Assembly (NCBI GenBank): GCA_016839705.1
Contig: JAEOTR010000003.1
Span: 1 to 61,308, forward strand
Reading direction: 5' to 3'
Length of the DNA stretch: 61,308 bases
From: Promethearchaeota archaeon
GTDB lineage: Archaea > Asgardarchaeota > Lokiarchaeia > Sigyniarchaeales > SOKP01
The position numbers and the translations under genes were made by a program. Positions 10,284 through 35,848 of the stretch are shown here, piece by piece. Each line of letters opens with the position of its first letter. The first letter of the stretch is position 1. A model generated the notes under the pieces. The model was not told the origin of the DNA, did not search any database, and saw only the letters and a program-made list of their open reading frames with translations.

Positions 10284-12683
10284 TTATAAACTATGTTCTA
10301 ACCTATCAATAATGTCATTTTGAATTGGAGTGCCAAGATCAATAAAAGTAGCATTATATCCTCCAACTTTTACAATTAAATCTTGATACTCATCAGGATG
10401 TTGTTGTGCATCTTTAAGAGTTTTAGTCGATACAACAGTAGGTTGTAATTGCATCCCCCCTGAATCGAAATATCCCTTTACAATATAGGTGAATTTTTCA
10501 ATATTTTCTTCAGTTTTAATATTTTGAGGATTGATCCTCACATTAACCGCAACACCATTTATCGCTAGGTCATAGTTCAATTTTGCTATAGAATTTAATG
10601 CGGCAGTAAGACCATTCTTCTCCATTTTATTCACAGGAGAAAGACTATTTGATAATGGTTGATTAGCTTTCCTCCCATCTGCAGATGCTTTTGTAAACAA
10701 TCCCTCTATAACATGTATTCCCATAGAATAAGCTCCTGGATTATATCTACCTTCTCTCAAGCATTTATGCTTAGCTACTTCAGAGCAGAACAAGTCCCAC
10801 AACTCTTTCGCACTTAGATCTATTTCCTCTTTATCATTTCCCCATTTATTATATTTGTTTAATAGTTTTTGTCGTAGTTCTTCTTGCTCACTGAAATTTG
10901 AATTAAGAACTTCAATTAGTTTCGGGAGTGAGATAATTTTTTCTTCATAAACAGATTTCTTGACATTATACATTGAATCGACTAAAGTTGCAAATCCGTA
11001 AGCTGTGATTGAGGAGAAGTTATATTGTGCCCCTCCCGCAGTATAATCCATGCCTTTTTCCATACAACCATCAATGATGGCCGACACAAATGGTTGTGGA
11101 AAATGTTTAATGGTCTCTTCATCTCCAATCCTAGCAATTTTAACAGTTTTTTCAATGTTATATTGTAATTGATGGATAAAAGCCGTATAAAATTCCTCAT
11201 ATGTAGAGAAATTTCTAGGATCACCTGTTTCTAAGCCACCTATCTGTTGTGTTAAATTACAATACCCATTGTTTAATGTGAGTTCAAGAACACCTGGAAG
11301 ATTTATAAACATTCTACCCGTAGCAGCAAAAGTATTTCCTTGACTTGTAGGTTCTACACATCCAATTATTGCATAATTACGAGCGTCTTCGGTAGTATAT
11401 CCTCCCTTTATCATTGCAGGAATAATAATCTCGTCATTATAGAAAGCTATTCCAGAAGTTGATCGAAATACTTTTATCGCCTTTTTTAAAAATCTGGGGG
11501 GAGTTTTGTTATGAATTCTGATTGAAAGATCAGTTGTGAGTGCCTTAAGATTCTTATAGGCTTCTAGGAATAAATAGGAAATTTCATTTGTGGTATCGTT
11601 TCCTTTCTGATCTACCCCAGAAATTGTGATTGTTTGGGTATTTTGTCCAAGAGCATTTGCTATTGTGGTATAATCTGTTGGTAATAGTGTTACATTCCAA
11701 GTGAGTTTCAAATTCAATTCTTCAATCAGTTCAAGTGCGAATTCTTTTGTAATGTTATCTTTTTTGATATCCTCTTTATAATATGGCCATAAGATTTGAT
11801 CTAACCTACCTAAAGCAACAACACTTCTCTGATAAATTATATTAATGATGTTCTGGGTGAAATGTATAAGTTGAATTGCTTCATAAAATGAGTTTGGGCT
11901 AGAATGGGTAAATCTCTCCATCATCCTTCCTATTATTTCGAGCTCCTTCTTCTTTTTTTCATTTTTCTCATCCGATGCTTTTTTATAAACAAGTTTAGAG
12001 TATCTCCTCGAAAATTCTATAGCAGCAGTATAAAGTATCTTTATAGCTTCATAGAAATTAAACTTCTCTTCATAGTTGAGATCGTCTATTTTTATTTTTG
12101 ACTGGTATGATTCTGCTTCTTTAAGAATCCCCTTATATCCTAATTTTAGAAGTTTTTCATATCCTACACATATATGACCTTCATTAGTTCCACTTACGAT
12201 AGCAATATTAGGAACAGCTAAAGCAATTCTATTATCTCCTGTAATTAATTTCTCATCTAAGATTCTTTGAGGAATTATATTACTATAAAGAGCTTTTCCT
12301 TTCCAGAAAGGAATAATTTCCAGAAGCTCATTTATATCATTTTCTTCCATAAAGAAGGGTTGCAGTTTTCTCCTAGTGTATTTTTTAATACCTGAGCGTT
12401 TGTTAAAACTTCCATCATACGAATGTAGGTCAAGATTAATTTTTTCACCTAAATTTTTACTAGTTTCATTTCCGACAAGTAGTTCATCTTCTCTAATAAA
12501 AATGGTCATGTGATTTAAAGTATGAGAAACAGCTTTAGCGTTCTTTATGATTTCAGGATCATCCGGAAATTTTTTATAGACTTCAGTGAAAGATTTCGCT
12601 CTTTCAATACATAATTCATATTTACTCGACAAAAGATTCTTTTTCAATCTCCTAGTTCTTCCAAGGCTTTTATCTAAAATCAA
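10284..12683 (-). CDS. Glycyl radical enzyme (PFL-like, GCVEP type), substrate unknown
   Basis: ELLVG, GRLDQILWPYY, GCVEP Cys loop, ASADGR, and C-terminal DLIVKVGGYNATF Gly loop. Confidence 0.9.
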   Translation of the reverse strand: MILDKSLGRTRRLKKNLLSSKYELCIERAKSFTEVYKKFPDDPEIIKNAKAVSHTLNHMTIFIREDELLVGNETSKNLGEKINLDLHSYDGSFNKRSGIKKYTRRKLQPFFMEENDINELLEIIPFWKGKALYSNIIPQRILDEKLITGDNRIALAVPNIAIVSGTNEGHICVGYEKLLKLGYKGILKEAESYQSKIKIDDLNYEEKFNFYEAIKILYTAAIEFSRRYSKLVYKKASDEKNEKKKKELEIIGRMMERFTHSSPNSFYEAIQLIHFTQNIINIIYQRSVVALGRLDQILWPYYKEDIKKDNITKEFALELIEELNLKLTWNVTLLPTDYTTIANALGQNTQTITISGVDQKGNDTTNEISYLFLEAYKNLKALTTDLSIRIHNKTPPRFLKKAIKVFRSTSGIAFYNDEIIIPAMIKGGYTTEDARNYAIIGCVEPTSQGNTFAATGRMFINLPGVLELTLNNGYCNLTQQIGGLETGDPRNFSTYEEFYTAFIHQLQYNIEKTVKIARIGDEETIKHFPQPFVSAIIDGCMEKGMDYTAGGAQYNFSSITAYGFATLVDSMYNVKKSVYEEKIISLPKLIEVLNSNFSEQEELRQKLLNKYNKWGNDKEEIDLSAKELWDLFCSEVAKHKCLREGRYNPGAYSMGIHVIEGLFTKASADGRKANQPLSNSLSPVNKMEKNGLTAALNSIAKLNYDLAINGVAVNVRINPQNIKTEENIEKFTYIVKGYFDSGGMQLQPTVVSTKTLKDAQQHPDEYQDLIVKVGGYNATFIDLGTPIQNDIIDRLEHSL

Positions 12684-15628: not shown

Positions 15629-17149
15629 ATGTTATTTCAAGTTTATGGCACCCCAGGTTTTGGAATTACAATCTTCGACCTTATACACTATTCATACATA
15701 ATCTTCATCATACTGATGATGATAAATTCAATTAAACAAAAAATTAAACATACAATTAAGATCACATGGGGATTATACATTCTGATAAACTTTTTTTTAC
15801 CACTCATTTTTGGGATTGGATCCTTCCCATTTTCTCTTCTTTGGCAAGGTGAAATCTATGGATATGAAAGGATTTATAGTCCACAAACAGGATGGGTTAG
15901 TATATTCGCTATATATTTTTATGGTATATTCGAACCTTTAGCAGCTATATTAGTCACAATCCTTTCCTCAACGATTGGCAAAAAGAAAAGAAGAAGGGTA
16001 AAATCTCTTAGAGCACCATCGCTTATAAAGACTTTTCCATTAGATAGAGAGTTAATTTTCATAAGTTATGCAACAGTGGATTCAGATTTTTTCCAGATTC
16101 CGAAACTTACGAAGATTCTAACTAGCTACCCAGAAATTAACGAAATATTATATTGGGAATCTGATATGCATGATGATATTTACCAATACATGGATGAGAA
16201 TTTGAAACAATGTAAAGTTGTTCTTGTTTTTTGCTCTAAAAATTCACTCTACTCAGAAGCAGTTAAAATGGAATGGCGTTCTGCCTTGAAAATGGATAAA
16301 AAAATCATCCCAATATTTGTTGAACCTGATGATTTACCTGCATTACTCTCGACCAAGTTAGGGATCCAATATAATGAAGACGATCCATATTCATCGATAG
16401 AAGATATATATCAGATGATTCTAAGAAAATTAGAAATGAATTCTTTTAGGGAGTTTACGAGGTTTATTATACCGAAGTGGATTACCGAAAAAGATTTCGA
16501 AGAACAAAATCCCGAAACAACAACACAATCAATGGTTTTTGATAGCGATGAATCAATAAAAGATTTAGGGAAAATAATTGCCCTAACTCTCCAAGAAAAT
16601 AATTTTTTCGTTCCTGGCTTGAAAGATTTGGGAGAAAAAATAAGAAAGAAAAAGGACTCGGTCCCAGAATCTGTTGTTCAAGATTTTAACCAATTTAATT
16701 GTTTTGCTGAATTGAAAGATGAACCAGAAGACATTGCATTATCAGTTAGAATCCAAGAAATATCAGAAAGCATATCAAAAGTGTTTATAAATGCCAGAGG
16801 GAAACGAACTTGGGTATTGGATGAGATCTTAAAAGATCTCCAACTAAAATTGATAGATTTAAAAAGTACAAATGAACTTTTACGAAATAATTTAGAAAAG
16901 ATTACTTCCTTATTAACCCAAATGAAAGATGTTGAAAGATTCCTTAGGAAGAATCTTGGGTCGGATATTAAACAAGTAGAATCGTTACTCTCTCAATATA
17001 ATGATGAGATAATTGAAAAAGAGGAACTTATTATAAAAGGAACACAATTAATAGGAAAGAATTTTATTACTGTATTCCTCAAAAATATCCCATTAATATT
17101 GAAAGAAAGCAAAAAGACACCTGTTGAAAAACCCCCTCTTCAATTTTAA
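15629..17149 (+). CDS. Three-TM membrane protein with cytoplasmic TIR domain and conserved C-terminal domain
   Basis: Three hydrophobic helices, then KKKRRR; IFISYA...YWESDM...VLVFCSKNSLYSEAVKMEW..AL...KKIIPIF is a TIR pattern. Confidence 0.85.
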   Translation: MLFQVYGTPGFGITIFDLIHYSYIIFIILMMINSIKQKIKHTIKITWGLYILINFFLPLIFGIGSFPFSLLWQGEIYGYERIYSPQTGWVSIFAIYFYGIFEPLAAILVTILSSTIGKKKRRRVKSLRAPSLIKTFPLDRELIFISYATVDSDFFQIPKLTKILTSYPEINEILYWESDMHDDIYQYMDENLKQCKVVLVFCSKNSLYSEAVKMEWRSALKMDKKIIPIFVEPDDLPALLSTKLGIQYNEDDPYSSIEDIYQMILRKLEMNSFREFTRFIIPKWITEKDFEEQNPETTTQSMVFDSDESIKDLGKIIALTLQENNFFVPGLKDLGEKIRKKKDSVPESVVQDFNQFNCFAELKDEPEDIALSVRIQEISESISKVFINARGKRTWVLDEILKDLQLKLIDLKSTNELLRNNLEKITSLLTQMKDVERFLRKNLGSDIKQVESLLSQYNDEIIEKEELIIKGTQLIGKNFITVFLKNIPLILKESKKTPVEKPPLQF

Positions 17150-17633: not shown

Positions 17634-18959
17634 GTGGAAGAAGTTTATAAAAAACCAAAGCTAAAGCGTAGAGTCTCTTTATTTGCTCTAACGGTTTATG
17701 GTGTAGGTAATGTATTAGGGGCAGGGATATATTCCTTAATTGGTGAAGTTGTAGGGATAACGGGGAACCTCTCATGGCTAGCTTTCATTATAGCATCTAT
17801 AACTGGAGCGTTAACGGGATTATCATACGCCGAACTTTCAGCAATGTACCCTAAAAGCGCTGCAGAATTTGTTTATACTGAAGAAGCATTTAAAAAAAGG
17901 ATTCTATCATTTATTTTAGGGTGGATAATCATCTTTTCAGGAATACTCTCAGCAGCCACTGTCGCATTAGCTTTTGGAGGATATTTATCTGGATTAATTG
18001 GAATACCCTCTATATATTTAAACATTATTTTCGCAATCATACTCGTAGTAATTCTTAGTGTAATAAATTTAATCGGTATTAAATCATCAACGCGAACTAA
18101 TATAATTTTTACGTTAATTGAGGCATCAGGTTTAATTATTATAATTATTATTGGGATACCCTCTTTTGGAACAGTTGATTATTTTGCGCTTCCAACAGCC
18201 TCAACTTTTACAGCCATTTTTTCCTCGATTGCTCTCATATTTTTTGCTTATATAGGATTCGAAGATATTGCCAATATTGCTGAAGAAGTAAAAGAGCCTC
18301 ATAAAAACCTCCCTAAAGCAATAATTTATTCAATCATTATTACTACTGTAGTCTATTGCCTTACTGCAATTTCAGTAGTGAGTATATTAGACTATAATGT
18401 AATAGCTGCTTCTGAAGCACCACTTAATGAGGTTGCTGCAGAAGTATTAGGTCCGATTGGTGGTATAATCATGTCTTCAATTGCACTATTTGCTACAGCT
18501 AATACAGTCCTCATTATGTTGATTGTGACGTCCCGTATGATGTATGGGATGGCAAGAGATAAAGCACTACCAGATGGTCTTAGTAGAATATCCTCAAAAT
18601 TTAGAACCCCAATGATTGCTGTAATTGTTACTACTTGTTTTACAGTAGTCCCAATCTTATTTGGGGATATTTCATTAGTCGCTCATGCAACCGTTTTTGG
18701 TGTGCTCATCAATTTTATTCTTGTTAACCTTAGTTTGATAGTTTTGCGTAAAACAAAACCAGATATTGAAAGACCATTCAAACTGAAACCAAATATTAAA
18801 TGGGTTCCAATAATCGCTTTATTAGGTTCTATTATATGTTTTACTTTGTTGTTTACTTTTGATTGGGTAGTTCTTCTTATTCAAGCAATTATAATTCTCT
18901 GTGGTATTAGCGTCTTTTATGGGATGAAATCAAAAATAGAGATAAAAACTAGAAAATAA
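17634..18959 (+). CDS. APC-family amino acid permease
   Basis: GNVLGAGIY, SYAELSAMYP, FFAYIGFE..AEEVKEP, SRMMYGMARD. Confidence 0.9.
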   Translation: MEEVYKKPKLKRRVSLFALTVYGVGNVLGAGIYSLIGEVVGITGNLSWLAFIIASITGALTGLSYAELSAMYPKSAAEFVYTEEAFKKRILSFILGWIIIFSGILSAATVALAFGGYLSGLIGIPSIYLNIIFAIILVVILSVINLIGIKSSTRTNIIFTLIEASGLIIIIIIGIPSFGTVDYFALPTASTFTAIFSSIALIFFAYIGFEDIANIAEEVKEPHKNLPKAIIYSIIITTVVYCLTAISVVSILDYNVIAASEAPLNEVAAEVLGPIGGIIMSSIALFATANTVLIMLIVTSRMMYGMARDKALPDGLSRISSKFRTPMIAVIVTTCFTVVPILFGDISLVAHATVFGVLINFILVNLSLIVLRKTKPDIERPFKLKPNIKWVPIIALLGSIICFTLLFTFDWVVLLIQAIIILCGISVFYGMKSKIEIKTRK

Positions 18960-19101: not shown

Positions 19102-22100
19102 ATGGTTATGATGAATGTCAATATTATCACACCTCAATTTAACGAAAGAAGTAGGAAAAATCTAACTCAGAAATCATACATCAAAAAAATTATCTCTTTT
19201 TCAATTATTCTATTGCTATGTTTTTCAATTAACATTCCAAATTTCTTAAGAGAATCTGGCAGTAGGCAGATAAGGGAAGATCATTCCATTGAAGAAATTT
19301 ATCTTAAATCAAGCAATCAGGGGGATCAAATGTTTAAATTCATATATGGTATTACAAATGGACCTCTTAATCTCGATCCTCATGATGCTTGGGACAAAGT
19401 TTCTTATGATGTAATTGAACAAGTATGTGAAGGATTGTTTTCTGATGACCTCAGTACTCCTGAAGCAGATATCATACCAAACTTAGCAAATGAAACCGGT
19501 ACTTGGATGATAAATGCTACAGATACATGGTATACTGTTTCGCTTAGATCTAACGTAACATTCCATGATGGAACTAAATTTAATGCAACTGCTGTCCAAT
19601 TTAGTTTTGATCGACTAGCTTATTTATTAAATTTCACTGGGACATTACCAGCAAGTGTTGAAACAAGCAGACTTACCGTTGTATATACTTGGGGTGACGG
19701 CACTCCTATCATCAACCATACTGAGATTATTGATGAATTTACAATTAAATTTGTTTTAACAAGACCGTATGCTGCCCTTCCAAGTTTATTATGCTTTTGG
19801 GCTTCATATATCTTATCACCTACCTCAACCAATGCGACTGGTTATATTGATACATTTACAGGAGATCTTGTTGGGACGGGGCCATTTGTATATGACGAAT
19901 ATATATCCGGAGAGGAAGTAAGACTTCATGCCTACGATGATTATTGGAAAGGAAAATCTCAGATAGAACTGCTTACATTTAAAATTGTCACAGATCCGGT
20001 TCAAGCATTAACTTCAGGTGAAGTTGATATGATAAATAATCTATATATTAATATGGTAAGCACCTTAGAAGCAGATCCTAACATTAACGTTGTAGATGTT
20101 GGAAATGGTAGTGTTATATATTTTATGCAAATGAATAATAAACTCCTAAATAGAACTTGGAGAGAAGCTATTTCATACACTGTCAATTACTCATATATTC
20201 TTGATGTCTTATGGCAAGGAAGATATAATAGATTACGTAGCCCACTTCCTGATGGTGTGCTATACGCTAATAATACTAACAAAGTAGCAACGTTTAACAT
20301 ATCATATGCTCGGAGTGTTATGCAATCTATGGGTTATGGAATAGGGTGGGATACGGATTACCCTGGGGTTGATGAGACACTATGGACTTCTTCCACATTT
20401 GCTATAGATGAATTTGGTGTCTCTATAGATTTAAATTTGTTCCCAAACAGTCAATTTAATTCTCTTCTAAATTCTTTACTGATGTCAGATTTATCAAAAA
20501 TAGGTATCGATCTCAGCGAAACAGAAAGATCTTTGAATGATCTCCAAATAGCTGGAGGAAGTAATCCAGATGAATTAGGTCTTTGGATCTTGGGTTGGGG
20601 TGCTGATAGCTATGATCCATCTCACATCATCGATCCTTTCTTTTCTAATGAATCTATATATTCCACTAATCATGCTCAAGTTAATGATTCATACCTTCAA
20701 AATCTCATTGATAATGGGTTAACTGAAACAAACCCAGCTGCTAGAAAAGCAATCTATGATGAAATTCAAAGATATCTTGTTGAGGATAGTATGCCTTGGG
20801 TGTTCCTAGGTATAAATCGTGTATTCGATGCTTATTATGATTATGCTCTTGGATATCAATCAAATTCATTTGGTCGGGTTAATTTATATACAGTATCACA
20901 GAATAGTACCCTATATCCTGGAAGAATATATTTAAATGGAGATCAAGAATGGGATTATTTAAAAACGTTCGGGAAATGTACAGGTTCTGGCACTGCTATT
21001 GATCCTTACATAATTAGGGATTTAGTTATAAACTGTCAAAATCGATCTCAGAGTGGGATTTTAATTGAGAATTCAGATGTGTTTGTTGAAATAAGAAATT
21101 GTACAATATATAATTCAACAGGAGCAGGAATTGAATTTAATAATGTGAGTAATTCCAAAATAATTGGGAATAATTGTTCAAATAATAGTTTTGGAATATT
21201 GTTGGATCTTAATTCAATTAATAATGAAATTTCTACTAATCTTATAGATACTAACAGCCAATATGGAATCATTTTGAATAATGCTCAAAATAACCTTGTT
21301 TTTAATAATACAGTAATTTGGAATAATGTCAATGCATACGATAATGGAACTAATAATGACTGGGATAATGGAGCTATGGGTAATTACTGGAGTGATTATG
21401 ATGGAGTTGATGATGACAATGATGGTATAGGTGATACTCCTTATACCATTCCGGGATCTTCAGGGAGACAAGATAATTTTCCACTATATGACAGGTATTT
21501 TGTTCCCGGCATTCAGGTCTATGTAGCCCCAGATCAAATAATTAAAGTAGGGATTTTAGGTGATCCGAGTCATATTTCCTGTGAACATGCTTGGAAAGGC
21601 GCAGTTCTTGCAGCAAAAGAAATTAATGAAGCTGGGGGGATTTTAATAAATGGAAGTGTATTTTATATAGGTCTTATTTCACAGAATACGTTTGAAGCGG
21701 AAGAAAATCTCGATACAACTAAAGGGATTAATGCTGCGACAAATTTAATTTCAACTTATGATCCTGATTTTATCATAGGAGGACTGAAATATCAATCTGT
21801 ATCAGCGTATCTTGAACCAATTATGGATGCTCAAATACCCTTTCTCCCAACAATTGTTTCTATTGACAATTTCACCCAAAATGTCTTGGATAATTATGAT
21901 CGGTATAAATATTTCTTCAGTCATACACATAACAATTCTGAAATAGCTAGAGAACTCATAACTTTTCAGGTTTATCTAACCTCACTATTATCTTTCACTA
22001 TAGGTCGGTCGGTAGATAAAATAGCAATTCTTCATGATGGTCAAGGTTTATGGCCCGCATTTTTTGATTTTGTAAAATCAAATTTTCTCCCTTTGTATGG

Positions 22101-24594
22101 ATTAGAAGTTGTAAAAGAAATTATATTCAATCAAAGCACTACAAAAGAAAATTTTAAAGATTACTGGTATGAAATTGACAATGCAGGAGCACAGGTTACT
22201 TTTGTTGGATCTTGGTTTTTGGATAATCTACCATTGATAAGCGAAGCATATGGGGAAGTCAAACCAAGGTGTTTATTATTCAGTTCTAATGGATATAACG
22301 TATTAGATACATATTGGAGTGATACTAATGAAGGATGCAAATATGAAGTTGGCCTTCAGGCTGTTTTAAATATTTCACGAACATCTCGATCAATGCCTTT
22401 TTGGAATAATTTCGTAAATGAATATAGTCATGAGCCATTTTTTGCTGCAGCAAGTGCATATGACAGTATTTATTTACTGGAAAACGCTACTTTAGATTCG
22501 CAATCTCTGGATGGTTCGAAGATTGTTGGAAGTTTAGAAAAAATAAATGTTTCCAATCCATTCCCAGGAATATCGGGAAAATTTGCTTATACCTCTTCTC
22601 ATGCTGTATTTCATGGGGTGGGTTATGGTTCCGAAGGTTATGCTTCCTGTATTATGTACCAATGGCAAGCAAACGGAAATAAATTTGTCATCCCAAATGC
22701 TAATTTAATATATCCTGATTCCTTAGCAACGGGTGGTTTACAAATTCCAGACTGGGGTATAAATATTCACTATACTATAAACTCTCCTATTGAAAATACT
22801 ATTTTTACGGAACTCCCTCCGGCTTTTAATGTTGAGATTCTTGATCCAATAGATGAATCTTGGTATATATTAAACTCTGGATCAGAAAAGCACTTTTTCA
22901 CTGCAAATCAATCAATAGATCCCACTGATTGGACCAACTTGCCGGAAGGAATCGTTAATTTAACATTTTATGCTATTGATTCTCAAGGAAAAATTTATCG
23001 TAGATATGTGACTTTCATAAAAGATGTTTCTCCTCCACATGTTACTATAGAACCGATGGAAACAACAACTTTCGGAAGTGAACCTCCTACGATAACTCTT
23101 GATATACAAGATGTTTCGGGTATTAAAGAAAGTTATTATAGCTTGGATGATGGCATAACTAAAATTCCATTTACTGGTAATGTAGTTACAATTAACCAAA
23201 CGATCTGGGAGGCATTGGGAGAAGGAATAGTAACAATTGCTTTTTATATAATAGATGTTGTTGATAAAGAAACCATTGTATATGTAGATGTATTTAAAGA
23301 TTTACCAGGAGCGCCCCCAGGTGACAATATTTTCTTTATTATTATTATTGGAGCCATAGCTCTCTGTTTAGGAATCGTAAGTACTATTACTTATTCACAA
23401 CATAGAAGAAAAAAGCGAAGAAAGACAGATTGGGCTAAACTGAAAAAGAAAAAAGGATTGATGACACCAGAATCCGCTGAAGGGAAGAATCTAGTTTTTA
23501 TAAGCTATGCGACTAAAGATTCTGAGTTATTTCAAATCCCATTGATAACAGATATTTTAATCCAATATCCAGAGATAGATGATATACTCTATTGGGAATC
23601 CGATATGCATGACGATATTTATGAATATATGGATGATAACTTAAAACTCTGCTCTAATTTCCTATTATTTTGTACGGAGAACTCTCTCTATTCTGAAGCT
23701 GTTAAAATGGAATGGCGTGCTGCCTTGAAACTAGATAAGAAAGTAATTCCAATTTTCATCAATCCAAATGATATACCTCCATTGTTAACAACAAAATTAG
23801 GTGTGCAATTTAATGAGGATGAAGTGTACGATTCAATAGAGGGTATATATCAGATGATATTGACAAAATTAGAAGTGCCTTCGTCTAGAGAGTTTTGCAA
23901 TTATCTAATTCCAAAATCGGTTTCTGAAGAATATTTTGACGAGAAAACTGCTCCAATGATAAAAAAAGATGCAATAATTGAAAGTGATATCCCCGCTAAT
24001 GACCTACAGATGAAACTTATATCATTTTTGGAAAAAAATAACTTTGAATTTCTCAAGGAATCAAATAAAGACGAAAAAGCTAAAGAATTTGAAGGATTTG
24101 CTGAAAGAACAAATGAAACACAACTAATATCTCTAAGATTTTTTGCTGAAGATAAATTTGCAAAACAAGAAATCGGATTATCTGCTACAATTCAAAAAGT
24201 TGAAGAATATAAGAGCAAAATATACCTTAGGATTATGGGGAATAAGGAATGGATGATCGGTGAAGTTTTAAAGGATCTCAATGGCAAATTCTATCCGCTA
24301 AAAACAGTTACCGAATTATTGAGAGAATATTCAGAAAAAATTGAAAATTTTATCGATCAAGTGGATAATCTTGAGGAATTTTTAAGTATAAATCTAGGTA
24401 TAGAATTTAGGGAAATTGAAGATATTCTGCATCAATTATCCAGAAATGAAATAGAAAAAGGCGAATTTATAAAAAGAGGGCTTCAATTGCTTGGAAAACA
24501 ATTTATACTGTTGTTCATTGAACACTTACTAAAAACTCCATATGATAAGAAAAAGGCAGAAGAACAAGGCGAAGGAATTCTTAGTCCCCTTTAA
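19102..24594 (+). CDS. Receptor-like protein: family-5 solute-binding domain + NosD-like beta-helix + type-1 periplasmic-binding (LivJ-like) domain + Ig-like repeats + TM + TIR + C-terminal domain
   Basis: NLDPH, IIPNLA, LRSNVTFHDGTKFNA, GTGPF (SBP5); GNYWSDY.G.D...DGIGDTPY (NosD-like); IKVGILG...GAVLAAKEINEAGGI, SAYDSIY (type-1 PBP); TM IFFIIIIGAIALCLGIV then RRKKRRK; TIR VFISYA...SEAVKMEW. Confidence 0.85.
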   Translation: MVMMNVNIITPQFNERSRKNLTQKSYIKKIISFSIILLLCFSINIPNFLRESGSRQIREDHSIEEIYLKSSNQGDQMFKFIYGITNGPLNLDPHDAWDKVSYDVIEQVCEGLFSDDLSTPEADIIPNLANETGTWMINATDTWYTVSLRSNVTFHDGTKFNATAVQFSFDRLAYLLNFTGTLPASVETSRLTVVYTWGDGTPIINHTEIIDEFTIKFVLTRPYAALPSLLCFWASYILSPTSTNATGYIDTFTGDLVGTGPFVYDEYISGEEVRLHAYDDYWKGKSQIELLTFKIVTDPVQALTSGEVDMINNLYINMVSTLEADPNINVVDVGNGSVIYFMQMNNKLLNRTWREAISYTVNYSYILDVLWQGRYNRLRSPLPDGVLYANNTNKVATFNISYARSVMQSMGYGIGWDTDYPGVDETLWTSSTFAIDEFGVSIDLNLFPNSQFNSLLNSLLMSDLSKIGIDLSETERSLNDLQIAGGSNPDELGLWILGWGADSYDPSHIIDPFFSNESIYSTNHAQVNDSYLQNLIDNGLTETNPAARKAIYDEIQRYLVEDSMPWVFLGINRVFDAYYDYALGYQSNSFGRVNLYTVSQNSTLYPGRIYLNGDQEWDYLKTFGKCTGSGTAIDPYIIRDLVINCQNRSQSGILIENSDVFVEIRNCTIYNSTGAGIEFNNVSNSKIIGNNCSNNSFGILLDLNSINNEISTNLIDTNSQYGIILNNAQNNLVFNNTVIWNNVNAYDNGTNNDWDNGAMGNYWSDYDGVDDDNDGIGDTPYTIPGSSGRQDNFPLYDRYFVPGIQVYVAPDQIIKVGILGDPSHISCEHAWKGAVLAAKEINEAGGILINGSVFYIGLISQNTFEAEENLDTTKGINAATNLISTYDPDFIIGGLKYQSVSAYLEPIMDAQIPFLPTIVSIDNFTQNVLDNYDRYKYFFSHTHNNSEIARELITFQVYLTSLLSFTIGRSVDKIAILHDGQGLWPAFFDFVKSNFLPLYGLEVVKEIIFNQSTTKENFKDYWYEIDNAGAQVTFVGSWFLDNLPLISEAYGEVKPRCLLFSSNGYNVLDTYWSDTNEGCKYEVGLQAVLNISRTSRSMPFWNNFVNEYSHEPFFAAASAYDSIYLLENATLDSQSLDGSKIVGSLEKINVSNPFPGISGKFAYTSSHAVFHGVGYGSEGYASCIMYQWQANGNKFVIPNANLIYPDSLATGGLQIPDWGINIHYTINSPIENTIFTELPPAFNVEILDPIDESWYILNSGSEKHFFTANQSIDPTDWTNLPEGIVNLTFYAIDSQGKIYRRYVTFIKDVSPPHVTIEPMETTTFGSEPPTITLDIQDVSGIKESYYSLDDGITKIPFTGNVVTINQTIWEALGEGIVTIAFYIIDVVDKETIVYVDVFKDLPGAPPGDNIFFIIIIGAIALCLGIVSTITYSQHRRKKRRKTDWAKLKKKKGLMTPESAEGKNLVFISYATKDSELFQIPLITDILIQYPEIDDILYWESDMHDDIYEYMDDNLKLCSNFLLFCTENSLYSEAVKMEWRAALKLDKKVIPIFINPNDIPPLLTTKLGVQFNEDEVYDSIEGIYQMILTKLEVPSSREFCNYLIPKSVSEEYFDEKTAPMIKKDAIIESDIPANDLQMKLISFLEKNNFEFLKESNKDEKAKEFEGFAERTNETQLISLRFFAEDKFAKQEIGLSATIQKVEEYKSKIYLRIMGNKEWMIGEVLKDLNGKFYPLKTVTELLREYSEKIENFIDQVDNLEEFLSINLGIEFREIEDILHQLSRNEIEKGEFIKRGLQLLGKQFILLFIEHLLKTPYDKKKAEEQGEGILSPL

Positions 24595-24684: not shown

Positions 24685-25431
24685 TTATAAGAACAGTTCA
24701 TCAAGATTACAATAACCTACAACTTCATCTCTTAAGAAAAATTTAAAAGGAAACTCCACAGCTTTATACGGTTTTAAAATATTTAGTAAAACTTCATGTT
24801 CAGGCTTCGAAAAAATCTCTTTAAATTCCTCTCCTACACCTTCTAAAAACTGAAATTGTTGAAGAACAAAATTTCCTGAAAATTTTAAATCCCTAAGAAA
24901 TTTTATAATAATCTCAATATCTTTTGAAGATAGAAGACTTTCAACATAAGTAGTACGTATCTCAAACTCTATTTCTTTTTGGATTTTTAGAAATTCAATA
25001 GTATCCCTTATCTTATTTGTATCTACTTTCACACCAGTAATCTTTTCTAGTTTTTTCAGCTCAAGAGGTCCCTTCAAATCTAATGCTACTCTATTAATAT
25101 AAGGAGAAATTGTTTTTATAACCGTGGGATTTGATCCGTTAGTATCAATGCTTAAAAATTTATCGAGGTTTTTAATTTCTCTACATAACTCTGGCAAATC
25201 TTTTTGTAATGTTGGTTCTCCTCCTGTAATACTCACTCCGCTTACTAGTGAGTTAGTACTTATTTGATTAATCAATTCACTGATAGAATATTCTCTCCCA
25301 ACATTGAGTTGTAAAAGATATTTATTATGACAAAAATCACACTTAAAGTTACATCCTACAGTAAATATTACCATAGCGGATTTATGTGGAATGTCCTTTG
25401 TTGAAATGTCAAGGATTCCTCCAATTTTCAT
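24685..25431 (-). CDS. Radical SAM glycyl-radical activating enzyme (NrdG-like)
   Basis: IFTVGCNFKCDFCHN, ITGGEPTLQ, IDTNGSNP, ALDLK, EIRTT. Confidence 0.85.
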   Translation of the reverse strand: MKIGGILDISTKDIPHKSAMVIFTVGCNFKCDFCHNKYLLQLNVGREYSISELINQISTNSLVSGVSITGGEPTLQKDLPELCREIKNLDKFLSIDTNGSNPTVIKTISPYINRVALDLKGPLELKKLEKITGVKVDTNKIRDTIEFLKIQKEIEFEIRTTYVESLLSSKDIEIIIKFLRDLKFSGNFVLQQFQFLEGVGEEFKEIFSKPEHEVLLNILKPYKAVEFPFKFFLRDEVVGYCNLDELFL

Positions 25432-31325: not shown

Positions 31326-31679
31326 ATGGTTGATAAAAAAGTTCTTGAGAAAAAATTAGCAGAGTTAATGGACATAGTTCCTGAATGTGAAGGTTTGATA
31401 GCTGCTGACTCAAATGGGAAGGTTATCATTGGCCAGACTATTACAGATATGGATCATGGTAAGATCGCAAAAGCTTGTGTTGCCATTGTCAAGGATTCAA
31501 ACACACTTGGTAAAGATACGGGCAAAGGTGGGTTAAAAACAACCACAATTGAATTGGAGAATGGATTTGCTGTTTTGGTTGGTTCCGATAAGAGTACTTT
31601 AATAGCTTTAGCTGGGTCGGATGGAAGAAGTTCTCTTGCGTTATTAAAAAGAAACTTAATGTCAATATCAAACTTATAA
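31326..31679 (+). CDS. Roadblock/LAMTOR2 (MglB-like) protein
   Basis: EGLIAADSNGKVI...TTIELENGFAVLV...LIALA...LALL roadblock pattern; AAGGA SD. Confidence 0.8.
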   Translation: MVDKKVLEKKLAELMDIVPECEGLIAADSNGKVIIGQTITDMDHGKIAKACVAIVKDSNTLGKDTGKGGLKTTTIELENGFAVLVGSDKSTLIALAGSDGRSSLALLKRNLMSISNL

Positions 31680-31726: not shown

Positions 31727-34700
31727 TTACTTTTTTGGTTTTTTCTTTTTTTGTTTTTCAGCTAAGCCTCTTTCTTCTAACAATGAATCTAAATCAGTTG
31801 TCTTTTTCGGTTTATCTTCTTTCTGCTCGATCTTTTTCTTAGGAATCTTTTTCTCTGGAGTTGGTTTTTTTAAGTCGGATACCATTATGTATTTTCCTTT
31901 TCTTGGTCTTCTTAACGGCACTTCTACAGGTTCTTCAATTCTTTTCCTCACTTTGCGAGCGTAAATTATTGCGAGAGCCCAAACAATAATGAAAATTGCA
32001 ATCATTAAAAACATGAACATCTCAATAAAGAAATCTAATATTGGAGGATCAAAAACACTGAAAGAAGATTCTTCGGAAAAAGTGAAATTTTCACCGGTAA
32101 TAACATTTTGGGCGGTTATTGTAAAATTTATTCGAAGGTGGCTGACTTCAGTCATAAAAATTTCAATCTCTATATCTGATTTATCACCAGAGGAGAGCCA
32201 ATTTAATTCAACGTAATTTACTTCGACAATTGAATACTCTAAATTATTCTCAATGTCTACAGTAATATCAAAAAGTCTTACGTTAGAGTCTCCAATATTG
32301 CTTAAACTATAAGTTATTGTTGTTAATCTATTTCTATATATAAATACATCATTCTGGCTAACTGAAATTGAAATGTCGGTGTCCTCATGAATAGTATTTA
32401 TAGAGAAATTCTCTGAAACACCGTTTATGATATCCCCCGCCCAAGATAATTTTAATAGTAAATCCCCTTCAAAATCGATAATCAAAGTGTCTATGATAAA
32501 CTTAACATAGCCATTAACATCAGTCACACCTGTGGCAATTTCAACCCATGAACTTGAGTCAAAGTACTCACAAGTGACGTTCTTATTTGACAATGCCTCT
32601 CCAAATTCAGTAGTTAACCTTGAACTAAAATTAATCGATTGACCTTTGATTGGGATGGTTGGATCAATCGTCATGTTTGTAAATTTGCTATTAAGCTTTA
32701 TGGAAAATTCATCACTGAATTGCTTATAACTGCTGACATAATTTTTATCAATGATATTTACTAAAAATGATGATTTATTTGGAAAGTACAAACATTCGTC
32801 TCTCTCAAATTCATATAGAATAATTCCACTTGTTATTTCTTCTGCAATTGTTAAACCAAGAATATTACCATCATAATTATCACTTGTCTTATTACTCAGA
32901 AGTGAGAATCTAGGACTTTTATAGACTCCCACAACAACGTCTTCGATATATAGAGTAATTATTGTTTTTGCCCCTCCTAATCTGATAGGTGCATTTACAC
33001 CAAGCCACGTTTTTGAAACAATATCTAAATTTGGTATTGTGAGATTTACATCAAATTCATGACTGTCATCTGGATGTCCAGAGAAATTTAATGTGACCGT
33101 GTTTGAAATATTTTCAGCGATTATCCAATCTTCATTAATATATGAAACTAATTGTGTATCTATTTTTACATCAAGAGGAAGAAAAGGATGGGTATTGTGA
33201 ATTGTTGTTTTAAAGTTAACAATTTCGTTTGGATTTAATATATCTTCGCTTTGTAGAAATGATTCTAATAAAAGAGATAGATCTTGTCCACCCAAATTAT
33301 AAGAGAATTCTTGTGTTAGATCGGAATTATTTATCGCATAAAAATTTGGAATAGGAATGCCTGTGGTATCATTAATTGAGGCAATTAATATGGTATAATT
33401 CCGAAAGACTTTATTATTTAATTTCCCAATAAGAGCATTCGTCCCTAGGTCTGAATAATAAGTTAAATTATATAACTCAAGATCATATAAATCGATATAA
33501 AGAGTGATTTTTTTGCATCCTAAGGCTGAACCGTTTAACCAAAAGAATCCTAATTCATATTCTCCAAAAGTAGTAACTGTAGCGCTTAATTCTAACAATA
33601 TAGCGTTATTGAAATCGTAAGATAATAGTGAACCATCAATAGAACCAGTTGAATTCACCAATTCTGCTCCAGGATATCTTGTACCATTTGGAAAAAAAAG
33701 CGTAGCATTCGCATCACCACTTATTGGGGCATTTAAATTTTGATCTTGTATGTCGAGACTAACTGAAATGTTATCTCCATACATGAAACCATTTGTTTCT
33801 GATAGAATTCCTTTATAATTAATATAACTATGCATTTGATGAATGAAATTATAACTAGTTAAATTGAGTGAGAAGGTACCATCAAGGGTAGTATATGTTT
33901 CATTAATTACTAATTTTAACTTATTATGCTGATCTGTTACAACAGATTCCTCTTCTAATAACCAGAGAAACTCTTCACTATTTGGTTTCGTGAGATTATG
34001 AGCATTCATATAATTCGGATAAACAAACCAGAATTCCTTGAAATCCCAATTATTAAATTTCGAGCTGGATTTATCAAAATCATACTCTAGAACCCACTCA
34101 GGATTTTCATTATAGGTTGCATTATATAAAGCTGTCGCACCCTCAATCCAATAAGCCACTATAGAATATGTAACATTGAATTTAAAACCCTCAATCACAC
34201 TTTTATTCCATTCTAAGTAGACTTCAAATTCATCAGTAGGAGTATCTTCAACGGGTGTGGTAAAATAATTATTCCATCGTCCCAATCCCCAAGTTAAATA
34301 AGAACTTTCATTATATGGAGATGAACTAATTTCTAAATTTTCTATCGTCATATCGTTAATTTTCAGGGTATTACTCCCTTCATATACAAAATCAGAGGGC
34401 ATATATCCTCTAGTGACATTCAACCTAAAAGGGCTGGCATCGAGTTGACTTGATGGATATGGTTCATTAGTAGTTTCTATTTGCTTTGTCGCTAATGACC
34501 AACTAAGTCCATCATTATTAGTAGTTATCAATTGGTGTTCAGTTATCCCATCAGCTGTAAAATCAGTATAGGGTAATGATACTAGACTATATACTTCATC
34601 GGAATTATTTGACTTTATCACAATAAAATAATTTGAAAGGTTCAAATTTTGAGTATTAGCTGTATTAAACTCAAAATAGGAGGTATTGTCTTTGGTATAA

Positions 34701-35848
34701 CTTGTGAATAAATTTGAATCAATCATCTCATTATAGTCTGGGTTTAATTGTGTACCTCGTAAATTCGCTTCAGTCCTAACTATGGTATCATCTGCTCGAT
34801 ACAGTGTGATATTGAGTTCTGTAGTTGCTGCTTTCGTCAAATCTAAGGTTCTTATCCAAGCATAAAATCCATTTACAGTAGTTTTTTCTCCCTTTAAATC
34901 GAATTCCAGAGCAACATAATCGTTATCTGTTATAGGTAAATCAAATGCATATGTTGATGATAATTCTAAATTATAGAAATGACCATCGAAAGGTGTGGTA
35001 TCTTTTCTCTCAAAAATGAATTGGAGATAACAAACATCAAATGTATCAATATAATTCAAGTTTTCATTTATAAATTTCCTTTGAATCTCCTGAATACCTA
35101 TACTACTACTAATAGGAATTGGATTTGTCAAGTTTACCCATGCTGGTTGTGAATCATCCCATATTCTTACTGTCAAATTTGCATCCTCATCAAGCTCAAA
35201 AAGTAAGGAGAGAATTAGAGCTAATATTTTCGTTCTATTAAATTCGACATTACCGTTGATTACCAATGGATTAGTATACACCTCATCAGTATAATTTGCT
35301 TTCACCGTAAAATTTAGTTTGCCATTATCTGCTCTTAACCATAGATTAGTTGAATTTGAGCTATCAACTAAGTCATTAAAAACACCGTCTATAGGCGATG
35401 TACTACTGGGGTCATAAGTATAGTTTGAATAAGGTTGATTTTCGTTAAAGTCAAAGGAAATGAAATCAGCAGCATCTAGACCACTATCATCTTCAAGGAT
35501 ATAATCTGTAGTAAAATTACTTTGAAACGTAAAATTGAAATCACCATAAGTGAGAAACATATCGTCTGAGGGAATAGAGGGAATTTCAAAAAACTCTTCA
35601 TTATCATTTAAATTACTAGATTCATTATTTACATAAATTCTAACATCCTGCTCATCCCCATTACCAACAATATAATCATCTAAATCAAGATTAGAGGTAT
35701 TTGGAAAATCTTCTAGATCTTTAATTTCATTACTATTTTCTCTTATCAAATTAGGATAGAATAAGAATTGTATATTAGATAATAAAATAAATGAAGTAAA
35801 AATTACGACAACTGCTATTCTTTTAATCTCTTTTTTTTGTCGAATCAA
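31727..35848 (-). CDS. Large cell-surface glycoprotein with C-terminal TM and Lys-rich cytoplasmic tail
   Basis: N-terminal hydrophobic segment, acidic beta-rich ectodomain with many NxS/T sequons, TM MFLMIAIFIIVWALAIIYA, basic tail. Confidence 0.75.
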   Translation of the reverse strand: MIRQKKEIKRIAVVVIFTSFILLSNIQFLFYPNLIRENSNEIKDLEDFPNTSNLDLDDYIVGNGDEQDVRIYVNNESSNLNDNEEFFEIPSIPSDDMFLTYGDFNFTFQSNFTTDYILEDDSGLDAADFISFDFNENQPYSNYTYDPSSTSPIDGVFNDLVDSSNSTNLWLRADNGKLNFTVKANYTDEVYTNPLVINGNVEFNRTKILALILSLLFELDEDANLTVRIWDDSQPAWVNLTNPIPISSSIGIQEIQRKFINENLNYIDTFDVCYLQFIFERKDTTPFDGHFYNLELSSTYAFDLPITDNDYVALEFDLKGEKTTVNGFYAWIRTLDLTKAATTELNITLYRADDTIVRTEANLRGTQLNPDYNEMIDSNLFTSYTKDNTSYFEFNTANTQNLNLSNYFIVIKSNNSDEVYSLVSLPYTDFTADGITEHQLITTNNDGLSWSLATKQIETTNEPYPSSQLDASPFRLNVTRGYMPSDFVYEGSNTLKINDMTIENLEISSSPYNESSYLTWGLGRWNNYFTTPVEDTPTDEFEVYLEWNKSVIEGFKFNVTYSIVAYWIEGATALYNATYNENPEWVLEYDFDKSSSKFNNWDFKEFWFVYPNYMNAHNLTKPNSEEFLWLLEEESVVTDQHNKLKLVINETYTTLDGTFSLNLTSYNFIHQMHSYINYKGILSETNGFMYGDNISVSLDIQDQNLNAPISGDANATLFFPNGTRYPGAELVNSTGSIDGSLLSYDFNNAILLELSATVTTFGEYELGFFWLNGSALGCKKITLYIDLYDLELYNLTYYSDLGTNALIGKLNNKVFRNYTILIASINDTTGIPIPNFYAINNSDLTQEFSYNLGGQDLSLLLESFLQSEDILNPNEIVNFKTTIHNTHPFLPLDVKIDTQLVSYINEDWIIAENISNTVTLNFSGHPDDSHEFDVNLTIPNLDIVSKTWLGVNAPIRLGGAKTIITLYIEDVVVGVYKSPRFSLLSNKTSDNYDGNILGLTIAEEITSGIILYEFERDECLYFPNKSSFLVNIIDKNYVSSYKQFSDEFSIKLNSKFTNMTIDPTIPIKGQSINFSSRLTTEFGEALSNKNVTCEYFDSSSWVEIATGVTDVNGYVKFIIDTLIIDFEGDLLLKLSWAGDIINGVSENFSINTIHEDTDISISVSQNDVFIYRNRLTTITYSLSNIGDSNVRLFDITVDIENNLEYSIVEVNYVELNWLSSGDKSDIEIEIFMTEVSHLRINFTITAQNVITGENFTFSEESSFSVFDPPILDFFIEMFMFLMIAIFIIVWALAIIYARKVRKRIEEPVEVPLRRPRKGKYIMVSDLKKPTPEKKIPKKKIEQKEDKPKKTTDLDSLLEERGLAEKQKKKKPKK

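Follow-up and report, generated by a model that had tools for sequence, protein, structure and literature searches.

A gene for a protein of 1830 aa from a Lokiarchaeial genome, here called P0001, encodes an accessory type-I surface receptor of Lokiarchaeia in which binding domains of transporter type outside the cell are joined, through one transmembrane helix, to a cytoplasmic TIR domain and one half of an adaptin ear. The gene lies within a window of 61,308 nucleotides, the whole stretch of DNA that was analysed (contig JAEOTR010000003.1 of assembly GCA_016839705.1). Judged from its sequence, the receptor is real, undescribed in the literature searched and cheaply testable, with NAD+ cleavage as its putative output. 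Asgard archaea are the archaeal sister group of eukaryotes. To our knowledge, those TIRs that have been characterised as enzymes are activated from within the cell, and those characterised in receptors (TLR, IL-1R) are scaffolds.

The receptor gene is a stop-free, single open reading frame with a GC content close to that of the remainder of the window. Its parts and the genes around it are the following.

15629..17149, + strand: paralog P0002 (44% identity), in which three TM segments precede the TIR-platform-tail module found in the receptor; no obligate partner (Pfam, hydropathy)
17634..18959, + strand: APC amino-acid permease, a conserved neighbour that bounds the slot on the left (Pfam, synteny)
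19102..24594, + strand: receptor gene, single-pass membrane protein of 1830 aa (ORF, Pfam)
19189..19245, + strand: N-terminal signal peptide or anchor, aa 30-48 (hydropathy)
19324..20901, + strand: family-5 (DppA/HbpA-like) solute-binding domain (SBP5), exchangeable between orthologs, with the WD and GWxxD motifs retained as part of the pocket (Pfam)
20914..21501, + strand: NosD-like right-handed beta-helix spacer (Pfam)
21535..22767, + strand: LivJ-like Venus-flytrap (Peripla_BP_6), scaffold conserved, cleft hypervariable and without the transporter signature (Pfam, LivJ alignment)
22777..23316, + strand: two Ig-like (Big) stalk repeats (paralogous repeats, Atlas lead)
23329..23424, + strand: transmembrane helix and positive-inside stop (RRKKRRK) (hydropathy, K/R counts)
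23485..23889, + strand: TIR domain of the Lokiarchaeia clade, with catalytic-type Glu1537 at 23710-23712 and Ala1533 (23698-23700) where cyclases have Trp (Pfam, alignments)
23890..24291, + strand: platform (TBP-like) subdomain of an adaptin/COPI appendage
24292..24537, + strand: tail of four helices, which in relatives resembles RST/PAH domains (alpha-alpha hubs) and is distinct from Vps28-C
24685..25431, - strand: gene for an activase-like radical SAM protein, which bounds the slot on the right and abuts the permease in 25 genus relatives (Pfam, synteny)

The Pfam matches to the receptor domains all pass curated cut-offs and comprise SBP_bac_5 (aa 124-518, 1.6e-55), NosD (aa 647-768, 7.6e-15, with a Beta_helix match too), Peripla_BP_6 (aa 822-1155, 1.2e-10) and TIR_2 (aa 1465-1573, 1.8e-11). 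Together with two hydrophobic segments (aa 30-48 and aa 1410-1428, by hydropathy) they bear out the domain order SBP5, NosD, flytrap, TM and TIR proposed in the initial annotation, whose coordinates are all correct within about 30 nt and whose two motifs were found in their places, RRKKRRK at aa 1435-1441 (nt 23404-23424) and SEAVKMEW at aa 1531-1538 (nt 23692-23715). The Ig-like repeats that it also proposed have no Pfam match, and the evidence for them consists of an Atlas lead (Big_7, 0.92) and of paralogous repeats in other surface proteins. N-glycosylation sequons number 33 before the TM, where shuffles expect 17, and one after it, while lysine and arginine make up 1 of the 15 residues before the helix and 11 of the 20 residues after it; the K/R asymmetry is the same in eight homologs, six of which are clearly enriched in sequons. 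Because of the sequon bias on one side and the charge bias on the other, the TIR is placed in the cytoplasm, in agreement with the ectodomain-TM-TIR receptor topology first suggested and against an extracellular TIR.

It is very improbable, and largely refuted, that the gene is chimeric through mis-assembly, or that a passenger tail became attached to a transporter-binding protein. NosD and Ig repeats are also found in other surface genes of the same genome, which favours a chimera, and an orphan SBP could serve in trans the Opp ATPases that most relatives possess (105/135); however, Logan contigs bridge every receptor junction from SBP5 through the platform at 100% identity, albeit in four samples of one marine-sediment study and, for the NosD/flytrap junction, only in a run that is possibly the source of the assembly. 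The domain order is the same in the independent assemblies that encode P0003 (1828 aa, GCA_019894975.1, Lokiarchaeota) and P0008 (2016 aa), and the architecture recurs with the same flanking genes in other assemblies, one of which is a Lokiarchaeota genome of the same genus. On these grounds, contig support across the junctions and synteny in independent genomes, a chimera was rejected, and the purifying selection on all receptor domains speaks against a chimera and a passenger tail alike.

A single monophyletic TM-TIR-platform-tail module is joined to many ectodomains, which include SBP5-NosD-flytrap-Ig, NosD2-flytrap-Ig, NosD repeats, WD40, Ig repeats, an unannotated ectodomain of 1080 aa, or just three to four TM helices. 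The module is present in 12 of the 135 genomes of the family, and a phylogeny, as the initial annotation had called for, places its 45 TIR sequences in one clade (FastTree support 98) nested within a wider Lokiarchaeia TIR family that includes soluble fusions. The TIR of the planctomycete Candidatus Uabimicrobium (P0091) also nests in the Lokiarchaeia TIR clade, and a transfer is possible.

Orthologs at the same slot carry differing, swapped ectodomains and are sometimes tandem duplicates. In 25 genus genomes without the receptor, no more than 12-58 bp separate the APC permease from the radical SAM gene, in the P0001 genome the receptor sits between them, and in other genomes the slot holds Fe-S/CCG, NUDIX or other metabolic genes. 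Since the slot is empty or metabolic elsewhere and the ectodomains vary, the gene is accessory, the permease is no partner and the locus is no defence island. A functional link to the permease was rejected on the abutting pairs; a defence island is not supported by the metabolic slot, and PADLOC gave no match to the cytoplasmic part of the receptor. An obligate pairing of receptor and co-receptor with the three-TM paralog was rejected as well, large and small forms occurring together in one of the 12 carriers, the P0001 genome itself. As first annotated, no ABC permease or ATPase lies beside the receptor, whose neighbours are by Pfam an APC permease, a radical SAM protein and PfkB. A sigma-70 promoter scan, with a model ill-suited to an archaeon, stayed at chance level. 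In the wider window, a PFL-like glycyl-radical enzyme (10284-12683) and the activase-like radical SAM gene (24685-25431) flank both TIR genes, and a Roadblock/LC7 gene (31326-31679) next to a gene for a surface protein of 1373 aa (31727-35848) is syntenic in relatives.

Both SBP5 and Peripla_BP_6, the folds of ABC importer binding proteins, are present in P0001, and the initial annotation took the receptor to make an NAD-derived signal in response to outside metabolites. Spelled out, this model is a nutrient sensor that binds a defined peptide or amino acid and makes an NAD-derived second messenger. We consider it rather unlikely. The SBP5 domain speaks in its favour in that it is DppA/HbpA-like over its full length (E 2.8e-34), evolves with a dN/dS of 0.255 and keeps the WD and GWxxD motifs of the pocket, although a conserved Trp has changed, as has the Tyr that follows the Asp (pocket positions assigned in part tentatively, after DppA); the metabolic neighbourhood fits as well. 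Pocket conservation is nevertheless 0.41 compared with 0.56 in opp-operon proteins, and SBP5 is missing from most orthologs. Because the P0008 and P0001 copies group apart, SBP5 has been recruited more than once. A peptide is a possible ligand. The argument that a genome without an Opp transporter makes SBP5 a sensor was dropped: oligo_HPY has no match in the P0001 genome, but 105 of the 135 family genomes have it, the carrier of P0003 included.

The flytrap also counts against a nutrient sensor. Its cleft was delimited as 35 positions mapped by alignment to LivJ 4gnr, with a pocket assignment that is in part tentative. In LivJ-like proteins encoded beside liv genes (n=14) conservation is 0.75 in the cleft versus 0.52 elsewhere, with the motifs GGFRTES, TGA and EDLxW, whereas in the receptors of the P0001 family (n=10) identity is 0.31 in the cleft versus 0.62 in the remainder of the domain. 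None of 5000 random column sets was as poorly conserved, and P0001 reads GGLKYQS at the GGFRTES motif, so that the LivJ-type ligand cleft is not conserved in this family. Pairwise dN/dS in the cleft is 0.4-1.7 in nearly all pairs, at near-saturated dS, compared with 0.22-0.46 elsewhere; these values do not demonstrate positive selection, and the cleft appears to evolve near neutrality, either relaxed or diversifying. A single conserved metabolite as ligand would not fit the P0001 family, and the proposed response to outside metabolites is weakened by the unconserved, near-neutral cleft and by ectodomains that are swapped at the same locus.

A second Loki TIR-receptor clade retains the LivJ pocket signature, which lends the nutrient sensor some support and, for the same reason, makes the loss of the signature specific to the P0001 family. 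Its receptors (loci L086, L089, L090 and L091) are of the form flytrap/SBP5-NosD-TM-(helical/PCI)-TIR and stand tail-to-tail with a conserved multi-TM gene of 318-328 aa; they appear to be better candidates for true metabolite sensing. These second-clade receptors, and many surface proteins without a cytoplasmic domain, use the ectodomain kit of P0001. Two other surface proteins of the P0001 genome, encoded at G000:C32:62566-67254 and G000:C50:10441-13572, use the Ig/NosD/SBP5 kit, one with a different cytoplasmic domain of ~290 aa and one without.

The TIR is the most constrained domain of the receptor (90% identity to P0003, dN/dS 0.105, compared with 0.15-0.28 in the other folded domains) and has the fold of the NAD+-cleaving TIR enzymes. 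The Glu of the SxxxxxE motif, which the initial annotation reported as kept and regarded as catalytic, is invariant, in a domain under strong purifying selection: it lies in helix C and occupies the catalytic-type position in 105/105 motif matches, and Glu1537 of P0001 aligns with the Glu of the SPARTA TIR. A catalytic role is less secure, as the Glu alone is no proof and is also found in >90% of the non-enzymatic TLR1/2/6/10 TIRs (PMC7075850). In every cyclase TIR that has been tested, the residue four positions ahead of the Glu is aromatic (WxxxE; 10.1101/2022.05.07.491051). P0001 has Ala there, SPARTA has Gly, and the 105 matches have Ala or Pro in 96 cases (A 57, P 39, S 6, T 1, N 1, F 1, W 0). 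Because the cyclase aromatic is absent, the TIR should, if active, consume NAD+ and give linear ADPR, not a cADPR isomer. The NAD-derived signal first proposed is weakened by these residues, and no ThsA-type reader (SLOG/Macro) was found in the locus; both points tell against the nutrient sensor too, as does a permease that is a mere neighbour. One standalone Macro gene lies elsewhere in the P0001 genome, in which STALD had no match in a search whose control also went undetected. A membrane NUDIX protein of 575 aa adjoins TIR genes in several relatives (L002:2563-4290, L033:8066-9793, L038, L044, L047-L049); it was rejected as an ADPR-clearing partner, no full-length copy being found in the P0001 genome.

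Alternatively, P0001 may be a non-enzymatic, TLR-like scaffold in which ligand causes clustering, the TIR recruits other TIR proteins or partners, proteins of trafficking or regulation are drawn in by the platform and tail, and the Glu is structural. This is possible but doubtful. The Glu does not track activity (PMC7075850), platforms and alpha-alpha-hub-like tails are interaction modules (PMC11188069), and relatives encode many soluble TIR proteins of the same clade (GTPase-like, TPR, LRR, WD40 and SMC-AAA fusions). However, Box 2 (RDxxPG) and Box 3 (FW), the motifs of TLR/MyD88 TIRs (PMC7075850), are absent from the TIR alignments, and the best PDB sequence neighbours are bacterial SEFIR, TIR-TPR and SPARTA proteins. 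The P0001 genome, 93% complete, has only three TIR_2 genes and no soluble TIR protein was found in it; because all three genes encode membrane proteins, no MyD88-like soluble adaptor is evident.

The extra C-terminal domain noted at first is present and, left without a name at that time, is an adaptin-ear platform. The cytoplasmic part is soluble, comprises 376 aa and has a confident fold prediction (pLDDT 83, pTM 0.79), in which the platform of the adaptin/COPI appendage follows the TIR. Sequence searches with the platform in Atlas and PDB returned nothing useful. Relatives without a TIR have an Ig-like sandwich (GAE) ahead of the platform; in P0001 the sandwich is missing and the TIR stands in its place, which sets it apart from the appendages of AP2 alpha/beta2, AP4 beta4 and COPI beta/gamma and from BBS7/9. 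The receptor thus has half an adaptin ear, the platform only. Vps28-C was rejected as the identity of the tail, whose profile misses Vps28-C-bearing proteins and which has no Pfam VPS28 match; compared with the Asgard proteins that combine an adaptin appendage with Vps28-C (PMC11188069; 10.1101/2020.10.19.343400), the tail of P0001 is RST-like and fused to a receptor. Its fusion to the TIR places the platform, an Asgard 'eukaryotic signature' domain of undefined function, in a concrete context for the first time. About 40 apparently Asgard proteins (P0104-P0154) end in a full adaptin ear and an RST-like tail, and some have SBP5 or NosD ectodomains and a TM ahead of it, a TIR-less sister receptor family. 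A protein of 606 aa (G000:C85:7223-9043, - strand, locus L041) combines a beta-propeller (weak BBS2_Mid 8.7e-5, Itfg2), a GAE sandwich, a platform and a zinc ribbon, the domain order of the BBSome subunits BBS2/7/9.

The platform also raises the possibility of a cargo or adhesion receptor for endocytosis-like sorting, in which the ectodomain captures, the platform couples to Asgard coat or ESCRT proteins and the TIR is a secondary timer or regulator. This is improbable, as no other domain is constrained as strongly as the TIR, the tail differs from Vps28-C, the locus contains no ESCRT gene and a common fold is no proof of coat function.

The best explanation, to which we give somewhat less than an even chance, is a ligand-clustered receptor with an enzymatic, NAD+-cleaving TIR output. 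From the computed architecture, topology, family, folds and selection we infer its ligand, clustering, catalysis, product and partners as follows. An outside ligand, more probably variable (for instance a peptide, a glycoprotein, a virus or the surface of a partner cell) than a single fixed amino acid, would bind the stack of SBP5, flytrap and beta-helix and cause several receptors to gather. TIR NADases need TIR assembly (PMC10937652), and the clustered TIRs would form a two-TIR active site that cleaves NAD+ to nicotinamide and, with no cyclase Trp, mainly linear ADP-ribose, so that NAD+ near the membrane would fall. The adaptin platform and helical tail may serve for docking, either keeping the TIR inactive or bringing in partners for sorting or regulation. 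The outcome may be defence, through a loss of NAD+ when a virus or another cell makes contact, or it may be regulation; patchiness, ectodomain swapping and the variable cleft lean towards the recognition of biological surfaces, and the metabolic neighbourhood gives no added support.

The NAD+-depleting TIR effectors SPARTA TIR-APAZ, Cat1, SARM1 and archaeal TcpA/TcpO are soluble and respond to nucleic acid, cyclic oligoadenylate or NMN, unlike P0001, which spans the membrane and would take its input from outside. With Toll-like and IL-1 receptors (PMC7075850) it shares the type-I layout of ectodomain, one TM, basic stop and cytoplasmic TIR, and with IL-1R an Ig-like stalk. Unlike them, it has transporter-derived binding domains (SBP5, NosD, flytrap) and no LRR, its Ig-like repeats being merely a stalk, it lacks Box 2 and Box 3, an adaptin platform follows the TIR and its sequence neighbours are bacterial; the TLR-like layout is best read as convergent. 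Thoeris ThsB, AbTir and the plant TIR cyclases have the same fold and Glu, with a weak ThsB_TIR Pfam similarity in P0001, but the WxxxE aromatic and a ThsA-type partner in the locus are absent (10.1101/2022.05.07.491051). DppA/OppA and LivJ have the same folds, but P0001 has no transporter operon and has lost the LivJ pocket signature. Class C GPCRs and natriuretic peptide receptors likewise reuse a flytrap as ectodomain, but in P0001 one TM leads to a TIR and not to a 7TM bundle, kinase-homology domain or guanylyl cyclase. P0001 is thus a member of none of the TLR/IL-1R, Thoeris, ABC-importer and class C GPCR families; on the enzymatic reading, it would be a TLR in layout and a SPARTA, Cat1 or SARM1 in output.

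Bacterial defence TIRs with TM segments are known, and a 2024 survey of TIR systems in E. coli remarks that bacteria seem to lack some of the features of TLR-like receptors (PMC11350192). The openly accessible main texts searched included no paper on such receptors, in line with the initial annotation, and TIR goes unmentioned in the main text of PMC11188069, PMC12962969, PMC13734099, PMC10307638 and 10.1101/2020.10.19.343400. With a Toll-like topology and a catalytic-type TIR combined in one Asgard receptor, the long-standing question of whether NAD+ cleavage gated by a ligand was the origin of transmembrane TIR signalling becomes testable, and the 376-aa cytoplasmic part can be assayed in E. 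coli. A bolder and unlikely reading is that swappable, diversifying receptors of Lokiarchaeia switch on an enzymatic TIR and that the same tail docks, through the adaptin-ear platform, onto the Asgard membrane-sorting machinery. If true, P0001 would, as a receptor of a prokaryote, link the signalling or depletion of NAD+ with proto-endocytic trafficking, and would be a functional forerunner or analogue of the Toll-like receptors.
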